DNA from: Candidatus Pacearchaeota archaeon
GTDB lineage: Archaea > Nanobdellota > Nanobdellia > Pacearchaeales > UBA284
Direction of reading: 5' to 3'
Assembly: GCA_026016245.1 (NCBI GenBank)
Contig: CP061211.1
Location: 180,001-212,000 of the forward strand
Length of the DNA: 32,000 nucleotides
Part shown: in pieces, positions 4,551 to 19,399 of the stretch
Numbering within the stretch: position 1 is the first letter of the stretch
Layout: the number at the start of each line of letters is the position of its first letter
Made by a program: the position numbers and the translations under genes
Notes under the pieces: model-generated
What the model was told of the DNA's origin: nothing
The model's input: only the letters and a program-made list of their open reading frames with translations
The model's database searches: none

Positions 4551-5700
4551 TAGATTTAAGAAAGAAATAGAAGATGTTTATGAACTTATGGATACAGCTA
4601 AAAGATATCCTAAAGAAGATTCTATTTTCTTTGGAACTGATCCTGTTTTTAATGCCATATATTTCTGTGGTAAAGCTAAAGACATTATAGAAAACTCTTC
4701 TTGCAAAGAAAAACATGATAATCCAAGCCCTGTTCTAGCAAAGCATTTTGGAATAAATGTGGAAAGTTCTGAAGAGCTAGAGAAGGAATATGGATATAAA
4801 AACAATAGGGAAATGATCAAGCATCTAGGATTACATTCACTTTATGAATACATATTAAGGTTTGATGAAAATGGTGGCTTGAAAAATAAAGCTAGATTAA
4901 TTTTAGATATGAAGAATGAAAAAAATGACATTACTCTAAGAGAACTTGTTAAGGATTGTCTTGGTTTTGATGATTCTGATCTTGTTAAGTATGCTGAAAA
5001 TCAGTTAAAGCAGAATGGCAAGCAAGTTGTGAATCTTGTTGAGAAGATGTATGGATTAAGACAAATTGAAAAATATAAAATTGGTCTTCTTAGAAATTAT
5101 TATTCTGCCCTCGAATATTTAAAAGAATTAGGAAAAAAACTTGATCCAGAAGGCAGGAAGAGATTTAGGATAAAAAATAAAGAAATAAGTGATGATTTTT
5201 TTGACAACATTGCTTTAGATTATGCATTACATGGATTGGATTTTAGAATTAAAGGACTACAGAATGATGATTTAAGAAAAAGAATTAAATTTTTCAGTAA
5301 TCCTGGAATAGGGGATTATGATCTTCTTGAAGATTTTATTGAACAAAAAGGAGAAAATTCAATAAAAAAGTATAATTGTAGTAATGATTTATTTGTAGAT
5401 CCAAAAACAAAGCTTGAGATTGATGGCAAGATTATTGAGAAAGAGGAAGATAAGTTTGCTGATTTTATAACAGGGATTCATAAAAAGAGATTCAAGAAAA
5501 CTTTTGAAGCAGTTAGAAATGAGAATGAGACAGATTTCAAGCAATATTCAGAAAAATTAACAGATGTAGCTTTAAAATATAGTGAGATTTTAGGCAAAGA
5601 TTATTTAAAGGAAAAACAGGAAGAAGCAAAAGAAATAATTGATGAAAAGAAAGAGTGGATATCAGAGCAAATAGAGAAAGATAAAAAGAAAATAAAATGA
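4537..5700 (+). CDS. hypothetical Lys/Glu-rich protein (387 aa)
   Basis: Long ORF coupled to both neighbours (overlaps of 14 nt and 4 nt). No motif recognised. Confidence 0.55.
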   Translation: MSENNRFKKEIEDVYELMDTAKRYPKEDSIFFGTDPVFNAIYFCGKAKDIIENSSCKEKHDNPSPVLAKHFGINVESSEELEKEYGYKNNREMIKHLGLHSLYEYILRFDENGGLKNKARLILDMKNEKNDITLRELVKDCLGFDDSDLVKYAENQLKQNGKQVVNLVEKMYGLRQIEKYKIGLLRNYYSALEYLKELGKKLDPEGRKRFRIKNKEISDDFFDNIALDYALHGLDFRIKGLQNDDLRKRIKFFSNPGIGDYDLLEDFIEQKGENSIKKYNCSNDLFVDPKTKLEIDGKIIEKEEDKFADFITGIHKKRFKKTFEAVRNENETDFKQYSEKLTDVALKYSEILGKDYLKEKQEEAKEIIDEKKEWISEQIEKDKKKIK

Positions 5701-6746
5701 AAATATTATACACAACAGATCCTCATGAAGATATTGCCATGCTTCAAGAAGCTGGAAAGTTTGGTTTAGAACAGAAAGTAGATTTATGGCTTGCAGGTGG
5801 CGATTTTATAGATATTCCTTGGAATTTACAAGAAAGTCATGATAGGTATAAGAAAGCAGTGAACGAACTTTTAAGAATAAGAGAACAAAGAAAATTTAAT
5901 GGTTCTTTAGAAGAACTTGCATTGGAAGTTGCAGAACAAAATGTATCCTCAGGTTTGAAGCAGATTGGTGAAGACTACATCGCTATGACTGGTGTTGCAA
6001 AAAATAACATGAAAGAAAGGTATAAAAAGATGGTTAAGGTTTTTGATGAGATAGATATTCCTTCTAAAACTCTGCCTGGAAATTATGATAATAATGAATT
6101 GATGAATGAAATATTTGAAAACAGCTTGCATCTAAATAAAGAAGAATTAAAACTGAATGATTCTAAGTTAACAATCGCTGGCTACGGCGGAGCTCCAGAA
6201 TGGCCTAGCTGGATTCCTCACAATTTGATTGTTCCTTTTAATGAAGAAATACATTATGATAAAAAAGGTAATGTAGTTGGAGGAAGATCAGAAGCAGTAG
6301 ATTTTTTCAGGAAAAATAAATCAGACATTATAATAACTCACACACATCCACAATCTATTTTAGATTATATCCTAAATGGAATGGGAAAAGTTGAAGGAAG
6401 TAATAGAAGTGCAGGAGGTAGTTTTGGTTTAAGAGTTTATCTTAATGAAATTCAAGAAGATAAAAACCCTTCATTCTTATGGCTTTGTGGCCATATGCAT
6501 ACAAGTAATATAAATAAAGGAGCAAAGAAGTGTGGAAAAACTGTTGTAATAAACCCAGGAAGCCTTAGTAGATATAGAGGAGCTATCAAGGGTGCTGGTA
6601 CTTTTGCTATTATAGACACAGAAAATAAAAAATTTGAAAAAGCAATTATTTATGCTGTAAGTGACAAAGAAAATGAAAGAATATTTCCAATAGAAGAATA
6701 TTACATCACTGATAGAGGTTTTAATAAATTGGAATTATTGTGTTAA
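5697..6746 (+). CDS. calcineurin-like metallophosphoesterase
   Basis: Ordered MPE motifs: TDPHED (DxH), GGDFID (GDxxD), GNYDN (GNH[D/E] variant with Tyr), ITHTHP and CGHMH (GHxH). Confidence 0.8.
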   Translation: MKILYTTDPHEDIAMLQEAGKFGLEQKVDLWLAGGDFIDIPWNLQESHDRYKKAVNELLRIREQRKFNGSLEELALEVAEQNVSSGLKQIGEDYIAMTGVAKNNMKERYKKMVKVFDEIDIPSKTLPGNYDNNELMNEIFENSLHLNKEELKLNDSKLTIAGYGGAPEWPSWIPHNLIVPFNEEIHYDKKGNVVGGRSEAVDFFRKNKSDIIITHTHPQSILDYILNGMGKVEGSNRSAGGSFGLRVYLNEIQEDKNPSFLWLCGHMHTSNINKGAKKCGKTVVINPGSLSRYRGAIKGAGTFAIIDTENKKFEKAIIYAVSDKENERIFPIEEYYITDRGFNKLELLC

Positions 6747-6786
6747 AAGATATTGAAAAATAAAGAAAGAAAATAAGAAATCTTAA

Positions 6787-6801
6787 CGAAACATTTATAA
6801 A
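6787..6801 (+). promoter_or_regulatory. rRNA operon promoter (BRE-like cgaaaca + TATA tttataaa)
   Basis: The sequence cgaaacatttataaa lies ~150 nt upstream of the 16S 5' end. The same AAnATTTATAAA consensus recurs upstream of other first genes at 60-67, 4055-4062, 8450-8457, 11731-11738 and 31144-31178. Confidence 0.6.
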
Positions 6802-6952
6802 TTTCTTTTGCTCGTGTAAATTATTAAAATGAAACCGAATGAGTGCCTTAATAATGGTCATATTAAGATTAAGGTATGATGTTGTAAGGGCAATCATTCA
6901 GTGATTTTTCTCGACGATTCTTTATTTTTAGGTCGGTAATGCGGTTCTTCAA

Positions 6953-8394
<1,442 letters not shown>

Positions 8395-8441
8395 AAAAAT
8401 ATAAAAATATTTTTCGTCGTTAAATACTAAACAGAGAGGGT

Positions 8442-8457
8442 GAAGAAAATTTATAAA
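8442..8457 (+). promoter_or_regulatory. candidate internal promoter (TATA tttataaa) in the 16S-tRNA spacer
   Basis: The sequence gaagaaaatttataaac has its TATA centre ~26 nt upstream of tRNA position 1 (8480). It shares the consensus of the 16S promoter. Confidence 0.4.
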
Positions 8458-8479
8458 CTAAAATTTCATGACTATCATA

Positions 8480-8600
8480 GGGCCCGTAGTCCAGTGGTAG
8501 AACGCTGCCCTTGCAACAAATAAATCTTTTAGAAAAAAAGATTTAACCAAGAGAAAAGCAAGAAAGGCAGAGGTCCCGTGTTCGAATCACGGCGGGTCCA
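8480..8600 (+). tRNA. tRNA-Ala(UGC) with a 49-nt intron at canonical position 37/38 (intron ~8516-8564)
   Basis: Acceptor GGGCCCG/CGGGTCC gives G3:U70. D-arm GTCC-AGTGGTA-GAAC. Anticodon stem CTGCC/GGCAG with loop CTTGCAA after intron removal. T-arm CCGTG-TTCGAAT-CACGG, discriminator A, no encoded CCA. Confidence 0.9.
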
Positions 8601-8749
8601 TTTGTCTTTTATAATATTCATCAATTGTAAGGCTACGTTGGAAACGTGGCATTCTGGAAAAATTTATTGGTGAAAAGATGAAGCTCTCTAGCTAGCTAGA
8701 GGGTGGATGTTGATTCATGATGAAAATGAAACACCATAGTAAGTAGCCT

Positions 8750-11672
8750 TCCCAGAGTTTGAGGATTTTTTATGCTGCTAGATGGATAGCTTGGCTTAGA
8801 CTGCGATGAAGGACGTGGCAAGCTGCGAAAAGCTTGGGGGAACTGCATGCAAGTTTTGATCCCAAGATTTCCGAACGCGAAACGTATTATGCGAAGAGCA
8901 TAGTGCTCTGAGAAGAGAGTACACGCTGGGAATTGAAACATCTTAGTACCAGCAGGAAAAGAAAACAATGGTGATTCCCTAAGTAGCAGCGAGCGAAAAG
9001 GGAATAAGGCAAACCGAATCCTTATATGAAAGTATAAGGAGATGTGGAGCGGCTTAGCGCACACCTGGGCTTGTATAGTTTAAGTTTCCTGGAACGGAAC
9101 GCTATAGAGGGTGATAGCCCCGTGAACGAAACAGGTATGGTGATTGCTAAGTTCAAGAGTAATGTTTCCTGGATTGGAAGCATGAATATGGCTCAACTAA
9201 GAGCCAACTTTAAATATAGGTCTAAGTCCGATAGCACATTAGTACTGTGAAGGAATGCTGAAAAGAACCCTTGACGGGGAGTTAAAAGACTTGAAATCTA
9301 GTAGTTATGGATTGTTACTGCTCTTTCTCGCTTATGTGAGTTTGAGTCGTAACGTGCGTTTTGGAAAACGAGCCAGGGAGTTAAGGTAAGTGGCAAGGTT
9401 AACTCATTATGTGAGGAAGCCGTAGCGAAAGCAAATGCATGTAGCTTTCGGGTGAAATGCAGCATCGTAACTTGTGTAAGTCACTTATCTCAGACCTGAA
9501 ACCGGACGATCTATTCCTGAACAAGGTGAAGCCTCTCTAACGAGGGGTGGAGGCCTGAACCGTTGTTGTGGGCAAGCACTCGGATGATTTAGGAATAGGG
9601 GTGAAAAGCTAATCTAGTTCGGCGATGGCTGGTTCCTGCCGAAATATACCTTCGTATAGCCTCTTGTTAGCTTACTAATGAGGTAGAGCTACGGATTGGA
9701 CATGCAGGTCGCTTTTGTGGTCGGTGTCCTGTCCAACTCCGAACTTGTTAGAAGCGCAGCAAGGGAAACAGAAGTGGGGGGTAAGCTTCTACTTCGAGAC
9801 GGGAACAACCAAGACTAAAGTTAAGGTCCTTAAATGATGATTAAGTGCACTGAAGGGCGTCTTGATTCTGAGACAGTGGGGAGGTGGGCTTAGAGGCAGC
9901 CATCCTTTAAAGAAAGCGTAACAGCTCACCTATCGAGAATCAGGGCACCGAAAATTGACGGGGCTTAAATCATCTACCGAGACTTTAGTGTTTCTCTTCG
10001 GAGAAATCAAGTAGGCAGGCGTACTGTTTGGACAGAAGTATCTTCGTAAGAAGGTATGGACCGAATAGTAATGATAATCCTGGTGTTAGTAGGATCTGAC
10101 TTACGTGAGAGTCGTAAGGGTCGAAAGAGCTAGGGTTCCTCGACAATGTCGATCAGTCGAGGGTTAGTCGATCCTAACTGCATGCTTAACTGACATGCGG
10201 GAAAGGGAAGCATTTTAATATTAATGCACTGTTCAGTAGTTTTGAAACTATCAAGGACGCTTTAGGACAAGCAGAGTGTATCCGCAAGGACATCTCTTGC
10301 AAGAAAGTCATGGATTGTAATGATGAGAAGTGACTGAACTGTAGGAGCCAAAGTTTGTTGATTCCTAGAGCTCGTAAAAAGTTGATAATGGAGCTGCTGA
10401 GCAATCGTACCTAGAACTTGCACTAGTGCTCTTGCTGAGTAGGTAAAGATCTGCAAGCTTAAAGCTGGTAAGGGAATTCGGCAATTTAGCCTTGTATCTT
10501 CGGTAGAAGAGGTGCCTATATTTGTGTTTTGTTTCGTAAGAAGTAGGATGCAAAAGTAGGTTTCAATAACAAGGACGGCCCGACTGTTTATCAAAAACGT
10601 AGCCAAGTGCTAATCTGAAAAGACTTGTACACTTGGTGAAACCTGCCCAGTGGTGGTGTCTAAAACTCCTTTTCAAGGGAGCTAAGGTCCATCAAACGGC
10701 GGGCCTAACTGTGAGGCTCTTAAGGTAGCGTAATACCTTGTCATCTGAATGGTGACTTGCATGAATGGTGTAACGAGGTTGTCACTGTCCCTACTAGCGA
10801 GCTTCTGAATCCTCCATTCTGGTGCAGAGGCCAGAGACGCCTAGCGGGAAGCGTAGACCTTGTGGAACTTTACTGCAACTTGTCGTTGTGTTTTGTGAAG
10901 CGATACACAGAGTAGCTAGGAGAGATGAAACGATGCTTCGGCGTAGTGGATCGAAAGTGTAACACTAGCTATCATTTTATAGAATGCTAACCTGAAAGGG
11001 GACAGCGGCTGGCGGGCAGTTTGGCTGGGGCGGCACCCTACTGAAAAGATATCAGTAGGGCCCAAAGGTGAGCTCAGTGTAGTTGGAAACTACATGAGGA
11101 GCGCAGAGGTAAAAGCTCGCCTGACTGTGTCTCGCAAAGAGAGAGACGCAGATGCGAAAGCAGGGCTCAGCGAACCCTAATAGTCTTTTAGTGGGACTTT
11201 AGGATGACAGAAAAGTTACCCCAAGGATAACAGGCTTGTCGCGCTCGATAGTCCATATTGACAGCGCGGTTTGGTACATCGCCGTCGGCTCTTCCTATCC
11301 TGGCTGTGCATAAGCAGCCAAGGGTGTCGGGGTTCACGCATTAAAAGGGATCGTTAGCTGGGTTAAGAACGTCGTGAGACAGTTTGTTTGATATCTACTA
11401 GGTGTGTTGTTGTCTGAGTGGAACAAAGCTCCAGTACGAGAGGAACGGGCTTTGGGAGCCTCTGGTTCAGCGGTTGTTCTTATAGAGCAGGCCGCACAGC
11501 TACGCTCTGGTTGATAAGAGCTGAACGCATCTAAGCTCGAAGCAACCCGCAAAAATAGACAACTGAGGCCGTTATAGAAGATAACGTTGATAGAGTTGGG
11601 GTGTAAGTCAGAAGGCAACGACTGATTCAGCCTGCAACTACTAAAAGCCTCATTTTCTCAAAAACTCAAAAG
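8750..11672 (+). rRNA. rrl: 23S (LSU) ribosomal RNA, archaeal (~2.9 kb), flanked by a 17-bp terminal/processing helix at 8731-8747 / 11676-11692
   Basis: 5' region gatggatagcttggcttagactgcgatgaaggacgtggcaagctgcga. Conserved LSU blocks follow, e.g. ggataacaggct (~11226), and the 3' region gttgatag...tactaaaagcc. Helix 1 pairs 8755-8765 with 11655-11667. Ends are uncertain by about +/-30 nt. Confidence 0.9.
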
Positions 11673-11712: not shown

Positions 11713-11719
11713 TTTTTTT
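11713..11719 (+). terminator. oligo-T tract, candidate rRNA operon terminator
   Basis: Run of seven T (cctatttttttc) about 40 nt after the 23S 3' helix. Archaeal RNAP terminates at oligo-T. Confidence 0.4.
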
Positions 11720-11785
11720 CTACAATAATCTTTATAATAACTCCCAGATTTCTCTTCTTGGCTAAGGAAAAAATAAAAAGAGAAA

Positions 11786-13279
11786 ATGAGAATTCCTGGT
11801 TCAATTTATAAAAATAAGAAAGGGGATACTTATGTAGCTCTGTATAATTATTGGGCAGATGTTTATAGGAAAGCTCCTCCTGAAATAAGAAAAATGTCAG
11901 ATTATGTCGCCCATATCAAGTATTCTTTTGGCGGCAATTCAAGAGGAATTGATGTTTTTCTTTTATATAACAGAAATTATGATATTTCTGATGAAGTGGA
12001 TGTTAAAAGAACACTTAGAGAAAGTAAAAGTAATGAAGTTAATAGAAATCTCAAAGCTATTGACAAAAGACATAATCTTATCGTAGAAATAGCTCCTGAA
12101 TGTGATGTTAGTGGGATTCTTAATTTAATCAGAAAAGATATTAAAGATTTTGCAAGAAGGCCAGCAAAAAAACATAGTCCTAGTATCAGTCTTGTTGATA
12201 AAATTGTTCCAAAAACAAAATTAAGAAAAATAAAACAAAAAGAATATTTAAGAAGAGGCAAACAAGAATTTGTTCCTTCTTGTGCTCTTGATGTTAATTT
12301 AGATTTTTCCTGGGGTTGTATTTCTGGCTTCATTCCAAGCCCCAATGCTCATTTTGATGGAAAATATTTTAGGAATTATTTCCTTGACATATGGGCTGAA
12401 TGTGGCTATTGTTATGCTGTTTATCAACACAAGAGTTTTGCTAAATATATTTTGGATATTGATAAAAAACAATTAATAGAAGAATTGGAAAAAGAGAAGA
12501 AAGCAAAGGCAAGAAATATTGTCTTAAGATTGGGTAAAAGAACAGAGGCTGGTTCTAAATTTACACTTGATTCTCTTGTAACCACGCTTGAGGCTTGTAT
12601 TGAAACAGGAACAAGAGCAATTATTCCGACAAAATATCTTGAATTTGATAAAGAAATTGCAGGACTTCTTAAAAAATCAAAATCAGTTGTTCTTTATAGT
12701 ATTGGTTGGGATAAACTTGAAAAAGGTGCTTGTATACATGGTTATCCTAATGAGTGGAGAATAGAACAAGCTTTACGATACAAAAAAGAAAATGTCAATT
12801 CAGTTTTATATTTGCACATAAATCTGCCACATAAGATGACTGAAAGAGAAAGAGGAATTTTAAATTTTGCATTCAAAGATGATTTACCTATACAACTCCT
12901 TTCGATAAGAATTCCAAGTAAAAGAATTGCTAAAGAAATTACTGGAAGTTCTTGGGAAGAATTAAAAACAAGCAACGGGCAACTTTTGCTAGATATAATA
13001 AAAAAGACTAAAAATCATGGCGGCTATAAATGGAAAACTAATATTATGATCGCACAAGAAAAACATGAAGATTATAAATTCCTTATTGGTCAGAATAATT
13101 ATCATCGCATAAGAATGTGCCATCATGATGATAAAGAAACTTACTGTGGCAGATGTTTTCTTGATGATAAAGGATCTATAACACCAACAGTAAAACTAGA
13201 TATAAAATATATGAAAAAAAGCAGAAAAGATTGGAAAAAACCTAAAAATCATAATGGTTCGCTTTTTGAGCATATTTAA
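11786..13279 (+). CDS. hypothetical protein: unknown N-terminal domain + SPL/COG1533-like radical-SAM-fold core with incomplete Cys motif + C-terminal Cys/His cluster (497 aa)
   Basis: DIWAECGYCYA (aa 200-210) resembles the CxxxCxYCYA of SplB-like enzymes but has Ile in place of the first Cys. The following LRLGKRTEAG...AIIPTKYLEFDKEIAGLL...VLYSIG...WRIEQALRYKKENVNSVLYLHINLP is collinear with that family's barrel pattern. C-terminus has MCHHDDKETYCGRC. TATA tttataat at 11731-11738. Confidence 0.55.
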   Translation: MRIPGSIYKNKKGDTYVALYNYWADVYRKAPPEIRKMSDYVAHIKYSFGGNSRGIDVFLLYNRNYDISDEVDVKRTLRESKSNEVNRNLKAIDKRHNLIVEIAPECDVSGILNLIRKDIKDFARRPAKKHSPSISLVDKIVPKTKLRKIKQKEYLRRGKQEFVPSCALDVNLDFSWGCISGFIPSPNAHFDGKYFRNYFLDIWAECGYCYAVYQHKSFAKYILDIDKKQLIEELEKEKKAKARNIVLRLGKRTEAGSKFTLDSLVTTLEACIETGTRAIIPTKYLEFDKEIAGLLKKSKSVVLYSIGWDKLEKGACIHGYPNEWRIEQALRYKKENVNSVLYLHINLPHKMTERERGILNFAFKDDLPIQLLSIRIPSKRIAKEITGSSWEELKTSNGQLLLDIIKKTKNHGGYKWKTNIMIAQEKHEDYKFLIGQNNYHRIRMCHHDDKETYCGRCFLDDKGSITPTVKLDIKYMKKSRKDWKKPKNHNGSLFEHI

Positions 13280-14054
13280 AATGTCAGACTTTGATTTAGA
13301 AATCAGAACAGGAGAAGGGATTATAATAAATTTAGAACTGTGTAAAGGATGGAAAAATATAATTCAAGAGTATAAGATTCCAGATAATTACAAGAAAAGA
13401 TTAGAAGATTATGCAAATGATCTTGCTCAATTTTCTGGATTGCAAAAAGCCAGATTAAATTGGAATGATGATTGGGGATTAAATTTTGTTGAAGCTTATT
13501 ATGGCAATGCTTGCGTCTTACTTTTGAATAAAGATGAAGATTCACCAAGTTACTATCCTCATAACATCGATACACCAGAACAAACTTTTGTTTTAATGTC
13601 CACTGTTTTAAAATATGTGTGGAATGTAAGGGCAAGTGCAGAAAATAAATTACCTAATTGGATGGTTTGGCCGATAGAGATAGACAATGTAAAAGAGGCA
13701 TGGATAAAGATAAACATGCATCCAAAACTAGAAGAGATAGTTAAAAATAGTAATAAAAGTGAAAAGTTTAGAAAATTTATTGAAGAATGTGCTCCTTTTT
13801 CAAAACAAGGATATTCTAGATTAACAGAAGTTAAATTTCATTGGGATGACAATTTAGGATTAAAAGCTGTTGAAGCAGTTCCAGGGATAAATGGTTCTGC
13901 CCTGGATTTAAATAAGGATGAAGCAGGTAATTTTTATTATCTTTCACACAATATACGTTCTCCTATTCAGGCTGTTGCATTAATAGGTTCTGTTTCTAAG
14001 TATATTCAGTATCTAAAAAGAATAGGAAAAGAAAAATGCCAGCTAGAAAATTAA
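13254..14054 (+). CDS. hypothetical protein built from a tandem duplication of an unknown ~120-aa domain
   Basis: The two halves align: W-DD-GL--VEA--G...LNKDE...YY--HNI--P-Q...V-KY occurs twice. The true start is probably ATG 13281 (MSDFDLEI), 2 nt after the upstream stop. Confidence 0.6.
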   Translation: MVRFLSIFKMSDFDLEIRTGEGIIINLELCKGWKNIIQEYKIPDNYKKRLEDYANDLAQFSGLQKARLNWNDDWGLNFVEAYYGNACVLLLNKDEDSPSYYPHNIDTPEQTFVLMSTVLKYVWNVRASAENKLPNWMVWPIEIDNVKEAWIKINMHPKLEEIVKNSNKSEKFRKFIEECAPFSKQGYSRLTEVKFHWDDNLGLKAVEAVPGINGSALDLNKDEAGNFYYLSHNIRSPIQAVALIGSVSKYIQYLKRIGKEKCQLEN

Positions 14055-14893
14055 ATGACGAACAGATGAAAGAACTAGTCAAAGATGTTGTTGGAGGAAA
14101 TTTGTATAAACAGGAGTTATTAAAAAAATATAATATCGGTGATAGTACATTTCCAGTAATATTAAAAAGAGCTGTAAAAAAAGGATTTATAAGTGAGGAA
14201 CAAAGGCTAGAATGGATAGCTAGAACTCGTACAAGAGGATGGAATGGGAAAGTTAAAAAATATGGTCTTAAGGGAGCTTCTGACTTGTGTAAAGAAGCTT
14301 GGGAAAAAGGATTGGGAAAAGTGGAGATTGATAGATGGAAGGAATTTTCTAGATTAGGGGGGGATACCACACAGGCATTATACCCCCATGTTAGAGATAA
14401 TCTCAGATATTTTGAGGTTTATGGAAAAAATAAGTGTTATTATGAGGATATGGAATTTTCTTCTTTTGGTGAAAGATTTGTCGGTTTTTTACTAATAGAA
14501 TATGGTCTAATTGATAAAATAATTCTAGGAGAAAATTTTCAGAGAAAAATAGATAATAAAAAAGTTGATTTTTATATTAATGACAAATTAGCTGTAGAAT
14601 ATCATCCTACACTAAAAGGACATTCTAGTATTGAATGTAAATCTGAAGAAGAATACAAAGAAGAACGAAAAAAACACTTCAACAAAGGAGGGTTTCATGG
14701 AGAAATTGTTGTTATAACAAGTATTTCTGATTTTTATAAGAAATTACCTAAACTAGGAATTGAAAGAATAGAATGGAGCACTCATTGTGACAGAGTTAGC
14801 AGAGTAAAAGAAATGTTGAAAGAATATGATGAACAGAATTTAGAACAAAAAGTTGAAACTGATGAATATGATGATGACGAATGCCCTTTTTAA
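14036..14893 (+). CDS. HTH domain + Vsr/DUF559-like PD-(D/E)XK nuclease-fold protein (285 aa)
   Basis: N-terminus LYKQELLKKYNIGDSTFPVILKRAVKKG looks HTH-like. The core SFGERFVGFLLIEYGL...FQRKIDNKKVDFYINDKLAVEYHP...EERKKHFNKGGFHGEIVVI fits the E...Q...DF...(I/V)E pattern of the DUF559/Vsr endonuclease fold. Acidic C-terminal tail. Confidence 0.6.
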   Translation: MPARKLNDEQMKELVKDVVGGNLYKQELLKKYNIGDSTFPVILKRAVKKGFISEEQRLEWIARTRTRGWNGKVKKYGLKGASDLCKEAWEKGLGKVEIDRWKEFSRLGGDTTQALYPHVRDNLRYFEVYGKNKCYYEDMEFSSFGERFVGFLLIEYGLIDKIILGENFQRKIDNKKVDFYINDKLAVEYHPTLKGHSSIECKSEEEYKEERKKHFNKGGFHGEIVVITSISDFYKKLPKLGIERIEWSTHCDRVSRVKEMLKEYDEQNLEQKVETDEYDDDECPF

Positions 14894-16299
14894 AAATGGA
14901 ATCTGAATTTAATTATGAGGATGCAAAAGCAAGAGTTTCAAAGGAACTTACTGATTTAGTGGAGCAAATTTGGCCAGAAATAAAAAAGAGTTATGAAGAA
15001 AGCATTGTTCAAATAGCAATTCCAGAAAATAAAGTTAAGGCTATATACACTAATTGTTTTAATATAAAAGATGATAACAAGAGAAAAAGATTTTCAATGT
15101 TGTTTAATTTAGAAGAGGAATGTTATTGGCATGCTATTGATAATTGGCCAGAAATTCGTAAAACTTTAACAAAAGAGGATGAAAAATTTTATGCTACTTT
15201 AATGATAGAAGAAGCTAAAAAGAGACAACATGAAGAAGAGAGATTTGGTTATATGTGGATAGTTATAAATTATGATAATGGAAATCTACAGAATTTTATT
15301 TCAGAAGAATTCTTAGAAGAAGTTGTAAACAGAGGATTTTGGGAAATTGCAAATGGATATTTTACTGGTGGTATTTTTAGTTTACCTTTAGAAAAATATT
15401 ATACTCTTATGAAATATTCTAAATATTTAGATTTTAGCAGATTGGATGAATTTAAAGATAAACCTCTTGTGCAGGGGCAATATGGATGGCTAGATTATAG
15501 ATATATAGAAGTTTTTGAAAGGGAAAGAAAAAAATTGAGTTTGGAAGATTCAGCATGGTTTGCACGTCCAATCATAGAATCTGTAATTTCTTGGTCCTTA
15601 TCTTTTGAAAATCCAGAGGATAATCCAAAAGAGGGTTTGAAAAAAAAGTTAGAGCCTTATAAAAAATATCTTAATATAAGAACAATTCAAGATCTTTTAA
15701 AAGAAAAATTTCAATATTATATCAAATATATCAACGATGAGGATGCTGGTTCTTATTTAGGTTATGCAAATATTTTAATTGACTATATAAATCTCAGTGA
15801 AGATGAAATTACAAGATTTGTTAGTGCTAGTTTACCAAAAGAAGAATTTGACTTGGAAAGAACTTTGATTGAAATTAACTTTCCAAAAAAATGGCTTAAT
15901 TCTGAAACAATGTCTATTATTCAAGAAAAGATAATCAAACATCTTGATAGGCCGCCATATCATTGGAAAGGAAAACAAGTAATCCCACATCTTGGTTTTC
16001 TTCAAGATGTTATTCAAAGAGAATGGCTTGACGAGGATATTGGAAAAGAAAGGATTAAAAAAGGACTTGAAAATTATTTAACTCAAAAACACAGACCAGG
16101 CGGTGCACCAGTTTTAGAACTTCTGCAGGTATTAAATCCTAAACATGTTGAACAAAAACTTTATAGAGAGGTTGTTCACCAAAGTATCACAGACCTTGTA
16201 AAAAGAAAAAGAATTGAAGAGGCTAGTGCATGGTATAAGAAAGCTGAACAAGAAGGGTGGCTTGATAAAAATAAAATTCCTATTTTTGAGTTGAGTTAA
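14881..16299 (+). CDS. hypothetical protein (~470 aa), no recognisable domain
   Basis: Long ORF coupled to the upstream gene. The likely start is ATG 14896 (MESEFNYED), 2 nt after the upstream stop. Confidence 0.55.
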   Translation: MPFLKMESEFNYEDAKARVSKELTDLVEQIWPEIKKSYEESIVQIAIPENKVKAIYTNCFNIKDDNKRKRFSMLFNLEEECYWHAIDNWPEIRKTLTKEDEKFYATLMIEEAKKRQHEEERFGYMWIVINYDNGNLQNFISEEFLEEVVNRGFWEIANGYFTGGIFSLPLEKYYTLMKYSKYLDFSRLDEFKDKPLVQGQYGWLDYRYIEVFERERKKLSLEDSAWFARPIIESVISWSLSFENPEDNPKEGLKKKLEPYKKYLNIRTIQDLLKEKFQYYIKYINDEDAGSYLGYANILIDYINLSEDEITRFVSASLPKEEFDLERTLIEINFPKKWLNSETMSIIQEKIIKHLDRPPYHWKGKQVIPHLGFLQDVIQREWLDEDIGKERIKKGLENYLTQKHRPGGAPVLELLQVLNPKHVEQKLYREVVHQSITDLVKRKRIEEASAWYKKAEQEGWLDKNKIPIFELS

Positions 16300-16676
16300 G
16301 ATAAAAACCTTCTACTTTTCTTAATTGTCCCGCTTACACCAACACATCTGAAGACCAAATTTTTTTCATCTATTAAGGCCAACGAAGTTTTAACCTTATC
16401 TACATATTTTGTTGTTACACTGACTATGAAATAAATTTTTTTGTTTATCTTGCCTGTTTCTACAAAGAGAGGACCGGCTTTTGCATAACCAAGAATCCCA
16501 ATAAAGTCAAGAATAGCTTTGTTAATTATTTCCTTTACTTTATCTTCATTTGATTTTCCTTCTATTGTTATAACAATATAATGTCTTTTTTCTCGCAGAG
16601 TAGGAAGAAGCTTTAATTTCTTTGGCTTGGTTTGTTTTTTCTTTGTTTTTGTTTTTTTCTTCATTTTTTTAATCAA
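16296..16676 (-). CDS. rnp2: RNase P protein component 2 (Pop5/Rnp2) with poly-Lys N-terminal extension
   Basis: LLPTLREKRHYIVITIEG matches the archaeal Pop5 N-terminal signature (LPPTLRDKKRYIAF), and the size is right. The TTG start in the track is doubtful; ATG at 16664 is likely. Confidence 0.75.
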   Translation of the reverse strand: MIKKMKKKTKTKKKQTKPKKLKLLPTLREKRHYIVITIEGKSNEDKVKEIINKAILDFIGILGYAKAGPLFVETGKINKKIYFIVSVTTKYVDKVKTSLALIDEKNLVFRCVGVSGTIKKSRRFLS

Positions 16677-16983
16677 TTATTGGTGGAGATGGAACACAAA
16701 TGCCCTCCTCACATCCACAACCCTTTATCTTGCAATTATAGAGAGCAGTGCATATAAGTTGATCAGCTGGCGGACAATCTTTTAATTTTTCTTCATATAG
16801 AGAGGCAAGAGCTATGCTAACACACTCTTCCTGGCCTCCCATATTACAAGGACAGCAGGTTGTTTGTACTTTTATGCAGTCTGTGTCTTTGAAACATTCT
16901 GCTCCAGGCTCGCAACCTTGGCCATTTATAACTAAAAGTAACATAACAAACAATATAGATAGGATAATTTTTTTTATTATCAT
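16669..16983 (-). CDS. small secreted Cys-rich protein (104 aa, 13 Cys)
   Basis: The N-terminal signal-like segment IILSILFVMLLLVING is followed by QGC. The mature part is dense in Cys (CC-x-C, GCGC). Confidence 0.6.
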   Translation of the reverse strand: MIIKKIILSILFVMLLLVINGQGCEPGAECFKDTDCIKVQTTCCPCNMGGQEECVSIALASLYEEKLKDCPPADQLICTALYNCKIKGCGCEEGICVPSPPIID

Positions 16984-16999
16984 CTTAAAAATTAATAAA

Positions 17000-19399
17000 T
17001 TACTTTATTGCTTTAAATGCCGCATTAATTGAATTCTCAGGCCATCCTGCTCCTTTTAGCTTGGCTTTAATCTCTGCTCTTGTTGCTCCAGTCGCTAGTG
17101 CATCTCTTATGTAAGAAGTTAACTCAGGATAAGATTCTTTTGCCTTTGGTTTTTTTCCTGCTTTTGGAAGAATGAATTGTTTGACAATAAAGATTATAGC
17201 TGCAAGAAGGATTACTCCTATCAAAACATAGATTAACCAGCCTAAAGCTGGTTTTTCAGGTTCTGGAGGAATGCAAGTTTTTTCTTCTACTGGTATATAA
17301 CTTGAAGGATCTTGAGGATCACATGTTCCAATCAAGTCACATGTTCTGTATTGTATTCCTGTTTCTGGACAGATAGTTGGTTGCCATTGTGTACATGACC
17401 AATCATCTGCTGTACATGGAGGTAGAGCAGCACAAATAGGATCATACCATGTATCATTTAAGATGTGGGTTGTGCTACAATTATTTAGGTCAACACATGT
17501 TCTAGTTCTATAGCTATCAACACAATCTCCCCAGCTACCACATGACCAGTTTTCAACACAACAAGCTCTCTCTTCTGTTTTTGTTCCTAAGCCGCATGTT
17601 GTATCTGTACAGTTTCTTGTCTGTTTATCTGTGCAAGGATAAGGCAGCCATTCAGTACACTGCCAAACTGGCTCGCAAACTTCACCGACTCTAAAAGATT
17701 GTTTTACCTCATACATTGTACAGGTTTCAAGAGTAATCCACTCTCCTGTTTGTGGATCCTGTATAGTACCACAATATTTGTTAGTTGGTTTGTATTGGAT
17801 TTTCACAACAAGATCATAAGTTCCATTTTCTCCAGGAGTTTTGAAGTGAGTTAAATCATCTAAAAACAGCTCATAAATATTATCCCAGTTTTTACAGCTG
17901 CTTGGAGCATTTGATGATGTATCTAAACAAGCTGCATAACCACTACCAAAATCAAATAAAGTACAAATGCTATCCTTACATCTTCCTGATTGGGTATCTT
18001 CATCTGACCATTCTGAAGGATTTTTTATATATTGGAAAAATCCGCTAGTTATGTTTCTTTTATTATCTGATGTTGATTCTCTCACAAAAGTTGCCAAGGT
18101 CAAAGGAAGATTTGCTGCACAACTTGACCAGCATTCATCTCCTTCTTCAGGGCATTCAAACTGTTCAAAATAGCTTCCTAGACCAGTTCCTTCTGCGCAA
18201 CACTTCTTGCCTCTAGCTTCACATAAATCTGAAGGGGTTACTCCTGTAGTTGTTTTTGTCAGCTTAATATCATCCCATCTTACTATTTGTGCATAAGGCC
18301 AGGTTGTACTAGGTTTACCATGAGATATTATCCAAATTTCCTTTACTAAATCATTCTCTGGCCATCCTTGTGCTATCCAGTCTGAATATAAATCAGCGCT
18401 CTCATTTGACCAATTACTTATAGTTGGCAAGGTTTTTGGAATGAAGGCATCTATATTAGGATTATAATTTGGATAAATAGCTGTGAATGAACAAGCATTG
18501 TCAATAGGATAATAATAATGTAATTTCTTACCAGAATTTGATTTAATTACAAGTTCAAAAGCACAACCTAAATCATATTTATACCAGTTAAGTTTCCATT
18601 GCAAAGGATCTGATAATAGTATTCCTTGGAAACTTAAACCATCAAAATTTAATTCATTCTCAGTTTCAAAGTTAGAGCCAGATGATGAATAGGTCGCTTT
18701 TCTCTCAGGAATATATCCTTTTCTGAATGCAGAGATTGGGGAGGCTCTTGCTGTCAAGTCTTGGTAAAAAGCAGCATATCCTTGTGTCATCTGAATGCTA
18801 TTAGAATCTGTGAATGCAACTATGCTTGTGACTTGTCCTAAAGGATCCATCCAATATTCCTCTATTCCAAATGCATTTCCTGCCATCCCAACAACAGATG
18901 GAGTCCAGCTTCTTGGCAAACTGCCCCAGATATCCTCAAAACCACTATTAATAATAATTTGTCTACATTGCGGGCCCATCATCTGACAGCAAATTCCTTC
19001 AGGGTCTGCTCTATTCACTACACATTCACCTAATGTTTCATTATATATAAACCAAGATATCTCCTGATTATTATCACAAAGATATTTTGAACATTTCGGC
19101 TTGTTAGTATAGACAAGAAAATTAATTTCTGTGTTTGGGGGCAATAAATCTCCTGGTTGAAGCATTAATTTTACAGAACCATTAAAATTCGAGCTTCTAT
19201 TGTAACTAGACCTAGCTAGCTCACTAGTTAATGTTGCTACTCCTGTCACAGGCATCTTAGGTGTTGGTGATTCTCTAAATAATATCATTATTGCAACAAC
19301 AACAAATATTAAAAATAAAATAAGAACAATTTTTTCCTTAGTATTGTAAGGCATTCTTTTCACTGCTGGTTCTTTATGCCTCTTTTTCATTTTTCTCAT
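17000..19399 (-). CDS. large Cys-rich surface protein: N-terminal TM/signal anchor, jelly-roll (CBM4/9-like) domain, Cys-rich region with three W-x-C-x2-W repeats, C-terminal TM and short cytoplasmic tail
   Basis: Hydrophobic aa 24-41 and 719-739. NSGFEDIWG...WTP ... IVRWDDIKL resembles the start and end signatures of CBM_4_9/galactose-binding-like domains. There are about 50 Cys and many N-x-S/T sequons. Confidence 0.7.
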   Translation of the reverse strand: MRKMKKRHKEPAVKRMPYNTKEKIVLILFLIFVVVAIMILFRESPTPKMPVTGVATLTSELARSSYNRSSNFNGSVKLMLQPGDLLPPNTEINFLVYTNKPKCSKYLCDNNQEISWFIYNETLGECVVNRADPEGICCQMMGPQCRQIIINSGFEDIWGSLPRSWTPSVVGMAGNAFGIEEYWMDPLGQVTSIVAFTDSNSIQMTQGYAAFYQDLTARASPISAFRKGYIPERKATYSSSGSNFETENELNFDGLSFQGILLSDPLQWKLNWYKYDLGCAFELVIKSNSGKKLHYYYPIDNACSFTAIYPNYNPNIDAFIPKTLPTISNWSNESADLYSDWIAQGWPENDLVKEIWIISHGKPSTTWPYAQIVRWDDIKLTKTTTGVTPSDLCEARGKKCCAEGTGLGSYFEQFECPEEGDECWSSCAANLPLTLATFVRESTSDNKRNITSGFFQYIKNPSEWSDEDTQSGRCKDSICTLFDFGSGYAACLDTSSNAPSSCKNWDNIYELFLDDLTHFKTPGENGTYDLVVKIQYKPTNKYCGTIQDPQTGEWITLETCTMYEVKQSFRVGEVCEPVWQCTEWLPYPCTDKQTRNCTDTTCGLGTKTEERACCVENWSCGSWGDCVDSYRTRTCVDLNNCSTTHILNDTWYDPICAALPPCTADDWSCTQWQPTICPETGIQYRTCDLIGTCDPQDPSSYIPVEEKTCIPPEPEKPALGWLIYVLIGVILLAAIIFIVKQFILPKAGKKPKAKESYPELTSYIRDALATGATRAEIKAKLKGAGWPENSINAAFKAIK

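Follow-up and report, generated by a model that had tools for sequence, protein, structure and literature searches.

In the present study, we analyzed a four-gene array in a 32,000-nt stretch of a metagenome-assembled genome (MAG) of Candidatus Pacearchaeota, a member of the DPANN archaea. This whole stretch (contig CP061211.1, positions 180,001 to 212,000) is called the window below, and positions are counted from its first nucleotide. The array lies between the ribosomal RNA (rRNA) operon and pop5, and its genes are called g1 to g4 in their order on the plus strand. Two of them, g1 and g3, make up a previously undescribed module, in which a non-canonical radical S-adenosylmethionine (SAM) enzyme is paired with a helix-turn-helix (HTH) and nuclease-like partner. 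We consider it somewhat probable (about 0.55) that this pair is a rare two-gene nucleic-acid repair or modification module present only in DPANN archaea (Pace-, Woese-, and Nanoarchaeota), and that g2 and g4 are lineage-specific insertions. In DPANN archaea, whose genomes are tiny, few pathways of repair or modification can be recognised; the g1-g3 pair has neither a curated family nor a solved relative and points to radical chemistry on nucleic acids.

Linkage of g1 and g3 across DPANN loci

The first-pass annotation of the window had described four co-oriented open reading frames (ORFs) that follow each other with overlaps or very short gaps and end convergently on pop5. Our ORF calls (497, 257, 285, and 467 aa) and the match of the pop5 product to PF01900 agree with this description:

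11786-13279, plus strand: g1, 497-aa ORF; divergent radical-SAM-fold protein, identical to NCBI protein IB618_01135; conserved core gene of the module
13281-14054, plus strand: g2, 257-aa ORF; two domain copies of about 100 aa; sporadic companion of g1
14036-14893, plus strand: g3, 285-aa ORF; HTH and nuclease-like protein, conserved partner of g1
14896-16299, plus strand: g4, 467-aa ORF; passenger gene
16296-16676, minus strand: pop5/Rpp14 (PF01900); convergent with g4, with a 4-nt overlap

We examined about 20 related loci. Their contexts, obtained by exact look-ups and by scanning one genome for each species, were screened by tblastn, jackhmmer, and profile hidden Markov models. The loci with both g1 and g3 are as follows (percentages are g1 identities to the window):

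Window: g1 g2 g3 g4, then pop5 (convergent)
L006 (75%): g1 g3, then pop5
L009 (58%): g2 g1 g3, then pop5
L007 (55%): 23S rRNA, 146-aa ORF, 308-aa ORF, g1 g3, then pop5
L014 (53%): g1 g3 in a different neighbourhood, without pop5
L022 (33%): g1 g3, contig end
L026 (35%): g1 g3
L025 (31%): g1 g3 pop5, all co-directional

Thus, g1 and g3 adjoin in eight independent loci including the window, over a range of g1 identity from 75% to 31%. The gap is 20 nt or less in the window, L006, L007, L009, L025, and L026, and outside the window no g2 intervenes. The exact gap is less certain in L014, where the tblastn match to g3 starts right after the g1 ORF, and in L022, where the g3 ORF starts about 80 nt after g1. 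When the look-up was seeded with g3 instead, all three g3 homologues (in L006, L025, and L026) adjoined a g1 homologue. In the g1 tree, the g3-positive loci comprise the clade of the window and three other deep branches, and the genomic contexts of the pair number three or more: adjoining pop5, in L014 (where pop5 is absent), and in L026. The pairing of a radical-SAM enzyme with a nuclease-like protein, seen by the first-pass annotation in the window, is therefore conserved. One could suppose that the array is a chance juxtaposition of four functionally unrelated genes, g1 and g3 included, because tight spacing is the norm in the window and neither g4 nor, for the most part, g2 is linked to the other genes. 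This explanation holds for g4, but the repeated adjacency of g1 and g3 in several contexts and at such divergence leaves it with very little probability for the array as a whole.

The full set of four genes was not found in any locus outside the window. The combination of g2, g1, and g3 occurs once besides the window (L009), where g2 lies on the other side of g1, immediately upstream of it, and g4 occurs with none of the other three outside the window. The first-pass annotation had taken all four genes for one DNA-targeting defence or restriction-modification-type system on an accessory island beside the rRNA locus. In favour of this explanation, the genes are co-oriented and tightly coupled behind a single TATA-like element, a radical-SAM-fold protein sits together with a nuclease-like protein, the g1 and g3 families are rare and patchy in DPANN archaea (44 and 55 clusters, respectively), and g2 adjoins g1 in both genomes that have g2. 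However, co-occurrence and gene order across genomes had been set beforehand as the test, and the four-gene set never recurs. Furthermore, g2 is missing from most other g1-g3 loci, and g4 homologues stand alone among housekeeping genes in three unrelated contexts. No family of PADLOC-DB v2 was matched by any of the four proteins at E<=1, and Pfam, NCBIfam, and PHROGs gave nothing significant for g1, g2, g3, or g4; the earlier statement that no named defence or repair system fits the gene set was correct in this respect. Together with the position of the locus (see the last section), these results make a four-gene defence system highly unlikely. We conclude that g1 and g3 are a conserved pair, that g2 is an occasional companion of g1, and that g4 is a passenger. 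It is recurrence across genomes, and not tight packing in a compact genome, that separates the real module (g1 and g3) from the passengers (g2 and g4).

At the g1 loci without g3, the neighbours differ each time: a peptidase; a 296-aa protein with a double ParB_N protein and an HTH protein; TatD with Taw1; an eIF2B-like protein; RFC with a NUDIX protein; and a 453-aa unknown protein. By hhalign against the g2, g3, and g4 profiles, the 296-aa protein of L004, the 453-aa protein of L016, and the 308-aa protein of L007 were unrelated to them. In L004 (11514-14944), g1 is followed, with coupled spacing, by the genes of the 296-aa unknown protein, the double ParB_N protein (638 aa), and the HTH protein; these form a different set of companions, which probably bind DNA. 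A weak precomputed label of the 296-aa protein as AGOG was not reproduced.

Domain structure of g1 and g3

A word-indexed search of 5.8 billion clusters gave 43 homologues of g1 of about 500 aa, none with a Pfam domain, and the family amounts to 44 clusters at 90% identity. All homologues with names belong to Pace-, Nano-, or Woesearchaeota. The following parts were distinguished in g1:

11786-12250, plus strand: N-terminal beta-rich domain, residues 1-155 (from the alignment and the secondary structure of the model); no recognised family
12281-12412, plus strand: split cysteine motif C166-x11-C178-x27-C206-G-Y-C209-Y (from the alignment)
13118-13156, plus strand: C-terminal Cys/His cluster C445-H-H447...C454-x2-C457, zinc-ribbon-like (from conservation counts); putative metal-binding site

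The AlphaFold (AF2) model of g1 is confident (pLDDT 90.4, pTM 0.88) and has six beta-alpha units at residues 194-386, forming a (beta-alpha)6 partial TIM barrel, with a beta-rich domain of about 155 aa before it. A Foldseek search of the PDB with this model returned almost only radical SAM enzymes with a probability of 1.0 (SuiB, biotin synthase/BioB, SkfB, AprD4, MiaB, HydE, LipA, and PFL-AE), and the viral structure library gave the same picture. At the sequence level, the radical SAM profile PF04055 matched eight of 39 members of the g1 family, all below threshold (best E 4e-5); g1 of the window itself did not match it at E<=1, and NCBIfam had no match for the family. The model, the fold matches, and the sub-threshold profile matches support membership of g1 in the radical SAM fold; the first-pass annotation had named a barrel of this type. 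An hhalign comparison of the g1 profile with two ordinary radical SAM proteins from related loci was uninformative, as these templates were single sequences.

The family motif of g1 is C-x11-C-x14-37-C-x2-C, in which all four cysteines are invariant and only the middle spacer varies, from 14 to 37 residues. In the model, the loop that follows the first barrel strand carries C206-x2-C209. Y208, before the last cluster cysteine, is present in 37 of the 39 members, and Y210 is invariant. A block R-x-G-K-x-T-E is invariant or nearly so; its G250, T253, and E254 come directly after the strand at residues 246-249, at the position of the GGE-like element of radical SAM enzymes. In the homologue of locus L027, the sequence CSYC aligns to the start of PF04055; C206-x2-C209 of g1 therefore match the final cysteine pair of the canonical motif, the first ligand having shifted upstream. 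g1 therefore shares with the radical SAM superfamily the (beta-alpha)6 partial TIM barrel, the aromatic-preceded C-x2-C after strand 1, and the Gly/Glu element after strand 2. It differs in lacking CX3CX2C, which leaves C166 or C178, 14-37 residues upstream, to supply the third ligand, and in having two additional parts, the 155-aa N-terminal domain and the C-terminal Cys/His ribbon; no curated model reaches its threshold on the family. Non-canonical spacings of the cluster motif are known in bona fide radical SAM members, and function is thus not excluded by the spacing. The motif CX14CX2C of QueE is conceptually like the displaced ligand of g1. The g1 motif would add to the non-canonical cluster-binding variants of the superfamily. 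In the N-terminal domain, Y8, Y20, D25, H43, Y46, D56, and D118 are conserved, and the Cys/His cluster is followed by a Lys/Arg-rich tail.

A specific affinity of g1 to spore photoproduct lyase (SPL) and COG1533 had also been suggested. An aromatic residue before the last cluster cysteine is general across the radical SAM superfamily. SPL has Tyr-Cys-Tyr around its last cluster cysteine (Tyr98; PMC3467042), which the Y-C-Y triplet of g1 resembles; both proteins have a radical SAM barrel, and both plausibly act on nucleic acid. However, the first cysteine of g1 is displaced, no SPL chain (4FHC-4FHF) was among the top 50 PDB matches in Foldseek, and the g1 profile matched no PDB sequence. The suggestion was therefore not upheld.

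The L027 homologue is a core-only protein of 300 aa (C-x12-C-x15-C-x2-C, with CSYCYA) that lacks the N-terminal domain. It is encoded on a putative viral contig (IMG/VR UViG_3300037067_020008; locus region 4551-6870), where its gene closely follows one for a reverse transcriptase (RVT_1), with MoxR-AAA and VWA genes in the vicinity. In the MAG JAZDEN01, two closely related g1 copies are present on different contigs (L015, 8001-9518; L018, 92-1606); the copy of L015 has an in-frame stop and could be a pseudogene or result from strain mixing in the bin or an assembly error.

For g3, an indexed search yielded a single homologue, and an exhaustive HMMER search of 1.84 billion representatives yielded 55 clusters, 30 of them below E 1e-10. 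Two parts were recognised:

14036-14215, plus strand: N-terminal HTH module, residues 1-60 (from family matches to HTH profiles and the alignment)
14441-14821, plus strand: C-terminal alpha-beta-beta-beta-alpha-beta domain, residues 136-262 (from the alignment and the model); putative Vsr-like or PD-(D/E)XK-like nuclease

Members of the g3 family match HTH_23, HTH_7, and HTH_28 (three to four members each; best E 3e-6), the family profile matches the tandem-HTH protein 2LVS (E 2.8e-6), and the HTH unit is present twice in homologues of 363 aa. The only match of the window g3 itself was to a PHROG family, with E 0.04, and NCBIfam had none. In the C-terminal part, S143, E146, and D178 are invariant across 39 members, and E188, H190, P191, Y207, and R211 are nearly so (E188 and H190 in at least 90% of the members). 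The top and only probable Foldseek match of g3, obtained with a model of low confidence, is the catalytic domain of I-Bth0305I (3R3P; probability 0.98, TM-score to the target 0.56, E 0.064), and Vsr of E. coli (1VSR) appears at rank 37. Among full-length members and isolated C-terminal domains, the only weak single matches were to other PD-(D/E)XK families, namely SfsA, BglII, and TnsA (E 0.02-0.08). The whole g3 profile matched only HTH proteins among PDB sequences, and the nuclease domain alone matched nothing relevant.

I-Bth0305I has N-terminal HTH-type repeats and a C-terminal Vsr-like domain with the catalytic residues E, D, x, H, and D (PMC3239194). Like Vsr, the EDxHD enzymes typified by I-Bth0305I, and DUF559, all within the PD-(D/E)XK superfamily, g3 has N-terminal HTH units and a small domain of predicted alpha-beta-beta-beta-alpha-beta topology; conserved in it are a Glu of the first helix, a strand Asp, and E-x-H. 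Unlike them, it conserves Y207 and R211 in place of the final Asp, and it shows no significant sequence match to Vsr, DUF559, or 3R3P. Of the earlier description of g3 as an HTH protein with a Vsr/DUF559 nuclease domain, the N-terminal HTH thus stands, and the C-terminal domain may plausibly be Vsr-like or PD-(D/E)XK-like; a Pfam match to DUF559 or Vsr was not obtained. Taking the HTH, the predicted fold, and the conserved residues together, g3 is likely an HTH protein with a PD-(D/E)XK/Vsr-like nuclease domain.

The resemblance to I-Bth0305I raises the possibility that g3 is a selfish, free-standing Vsr-like (EDxHD-like) homing-type endonuclease that settled by g1, with the adjacency reflecting its homing site. 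The common domain plan, the variable number of HTH copies, and the patchy distribution of g3 on the g1 tree would agree with this. However, g3 is in neither an intron nor an intein, unlike the EDxHD homing endonucleases, and is chromosomally linked to a radical SAM gene; a phage search with g3 gave no matches. Its putative catalytic residues are invariant across 39 diverse members, and no degenerate copies were seen among the loci. The identities of g3 and g1 are only loosely correlated (r 0.57), yet their divergence stays of the same order, which long co-inheritance would lead one to expect, and fusions of the g3 family to exonuclease domains suggest a cellular role in DNA processing. A homing origin of the g1-g3 adjacency is accordingly rather improbable.

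The fusions are found in two members of the g3 family, P0081 (505 aa) and P0083 (534 aa), in which the HTH-nuclease region is joined to a C-terminal RNase_H_2/PolB-type 3'-5' exonuclease domain. At its C-terminus (window 14861-14890), g3 has the acidic tail DEYDDDECPF, and an acidic tail with a terminal PF is also present in P0046 and in the L009 copy. This tail is similar to the C-terminal tip of bacterial SSB (DDDIPF). The acidic tail of g3 and the Lys/Arg-rich tail of g1 (13220-13276) could be a docking pair for protein-protein contact.

Possible function of the pair

One possible mechanism is as follows. Three of the four invariant cysteines of g1 would ligate a [4Fe-4S] cluster, and g1 would cleave SAM; g3 would bind a site in a nucleic acid by its HTH and nick or hold it with the E/D/E-x-H constellation. 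The radical chemistry of g1 would then act on a base or sugar of the g3-bound nucleic acid, so that the two proteins may cooperate in its repair or modification. Because of the HTH types of g3 and the exonuclease fusions, DNA is favoured as the substrate, and judged from these sequence features it is the most likely one. The best-known DNA example of radical chemistry on nucleic acids is spore photoproduct lyase. A two-gene combination of a radical SAM protein with a DNA-repair-type partner is also represented in bacteria by a 'DNA modification/repair radical SAM protein' and a UDG-like protein (NCBIfam TIGR03916/TIGR03915). The g1-g3 pair differs from these in having no NCBIfam match, in the HTH-nuclease-like rather than UDG-like partner, and in its occurrence in DPANN archaea only. 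More specifically, and tentatively, g1 and g3 might be a new radical-SAM module of DNA repair or modification, in which g1, possibly reading bases with its N-terminal domain, reverses or installs a lesion or mark, guided or assisted by g3 as an HTH-Vsr-like nickase, and in which g2 is an optional accessory subunit.

An alternative possibility is that g1 is a housekeeping radical SAM enzyme modifying rRNA or tRNA and g3 is its partner in RNA binding or processing, so that the position between the rRNA operon and pop5 reflects the role. The location of g1 directly downstream of the rRNA operon in three lineages would fit, as would the g1-g3 pair beside pop5 in the clade of the window and, independently and co-directionally, in L025. 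Further genes near g1 encode Taw1 (a radical SAM enzyme that modifies tRNA), aminoacyl-tRNA synthetases, and ribosomal proteins. RNA enzymes of the MiaB type are among the fold matches of g1, and Vsr-like folds are present in RNA-binding proteins too (PMC11879112). However, the family, with 44 clusters at 90% identity among 5.8 billion, is rarer than a core function in translation would allow, the HTH units of g3 are of DNA-binding types, and the exonuclease domains fused to its relatives are of the DNA type. Furthermore, most neighbours in compact DPANN genomes are housekeeping genes anyway. We therefore regard a role in RNA modification as unlikely, although it is the most probable of the alternatives considered.

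Several observations weigh against the repair or modification module that we prefer. Among the 19 g1 loci with a visible downstream region, 11 have no g3 within 8-10 kb; g1 can thus work without an adjacent g3. The g1 family scores under the gathering cut-off of PF04055 (for example, 22.8 versus 29.5 bits for L027), and the profile made from the g1 alignment matched no PDB sequence at E<=10. The canonical CX3CX2C is absent, the residue four before C206 being Ile, and the four invariant cysteines could occupy every ligand position of the cluster, so that SAM would not bind. As for g3, the Asp after the His (the final Asp of EDxHD) is not conserved, and its model is poor (pLDDT 57.5, about 65-75 in the C-terminal domain) because only two sequences were usable for the prediction. 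The fold match has E 0.06, Pfam Vsr and DUF559 matched neither the 39 full-length members nor 26 isolated C-terminal domains (E<=5), and g3 gave no significant match to any Pfam nuclease family.

Position of the locus, g2, g4, and neighbouring genes

The idea that the array is an accessory island found no support in the window: there is no ORF for an integrase or recombinase, flanking repeats are limited to short AT-rich chance repeats and none is att-like, and there is no compositional shift, the GC content of the g1-g4 region (0.28-0.30) being like that of the flanking protein-coding DNA. Furthermore, in the window, L007, and L004 alike, g1 comes shortly after the rRNA operon. As this holds even for L004, the 16S rRNA of which is 84.8% identical to that of the window, the position is old and not a recent landing. 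The interval between the rRNA operon and pop5 also holds g1 and g3 in L007; what varies there is limited to g2, g4, and two ORFs (146 and 308 aa) of L007. The module is thus accessory in its distribution, being rare for DPANN archaea, and vertically kept within clades. In the 23S rRNA of L004, about 280 nt (7453-7734) between two blastn blocks have no counterpart in the 23S rRNA of the window and may be an insertion or intron.

An oligo-T run and a TATA-like sequence had been noted between the 23S rRNA and g1, and both are present:

11713-11719, plus strand: oligo-T run (T7), 49 nt past the 23S rRNA end (11664, by Rfam); candidate terminator, as read from the sequence
11731-11738, plus strand: TATA-box-like TTTATAAT, 67 nt past the 23S rRNA end; candidate promoter, as read from the sequence

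The ATG of g1 is 48 nt downstream of the end of the TATA-like element. A scan for promoters and terminators used bacterial consensus sequences only and was uninformative for an archaeal host. Within the array, the ATG of g2 (13281) comes one base after the stop codon of g1 (13277-13279), and the L009 homologue, which begins MGDFDLEI, favours this start over the ATG at 13254. g3 overlaps g2 by 19 nt, and the ATG of g4 (14896) is two bases past the stop of g3; the N-termini of g4 homologues favour it over 14881. Overlaps or gaps of at most 8 nt also make up the majority of the remaining co-directional junctions in the window, and the tight packing of g1 to g4 is not distinctive in this genome.

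The internal duplication of g2, proposed earlier, is real: its halves align with 34% identity over 101 aa (E 4e-14). One relative of g2 was found, that of L009; two scans of metagenomes, a viral scan, and a tblastn search of phages gave none. Between the window and L009, the N-terminal repeat of g2 (window 13281-13634; L009 99-452) has 86% identity at the protein level and 71% at third codon positions, while the corresponding values are 55% and 50% for the C-terminal half of g2 and 59% and 51% for g1 in the same genome pair. This suggests a local recent exchange of the N-terminal repeat or a constraint at the nucleotide level.

g4 had been regarded as an orphan; it has eight homologues with 27-57% identity. 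It matched no family, PDB entry, or viral contig, and Pfam was empty for the members of its family, too. The g4 homologues of L010, L011, and L012 are located beside PAC2/PemK, after the CysRS gene, and between a peptidase A24 gene and the SerRS gene, with no g1, g2, or g3 nearby.

The rRNA operon upstream of the array consists, by Rfam, of 16S rRNA, an intron-sized tRNA, and 23S rRNA (6953-11664, plus strand). ARAGORN reports no tRNA across the 32 kb of the window, but the tRNA in the 16S-23S spacer, which spans 121 nt (8480-8600) by Rfam, is probably an archaeal tRNA with an intron. On the other side of the array, beside pop5 on the minus strand (16669-19399), are genes for two Cys-rich proteins, one of 104 aa with a signal-like N-terminus and one of 799 aa that has a membrane anchor at its C-terminus. 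Neither has a Pfam match on record, and their synteny is kept in L007 and L009.

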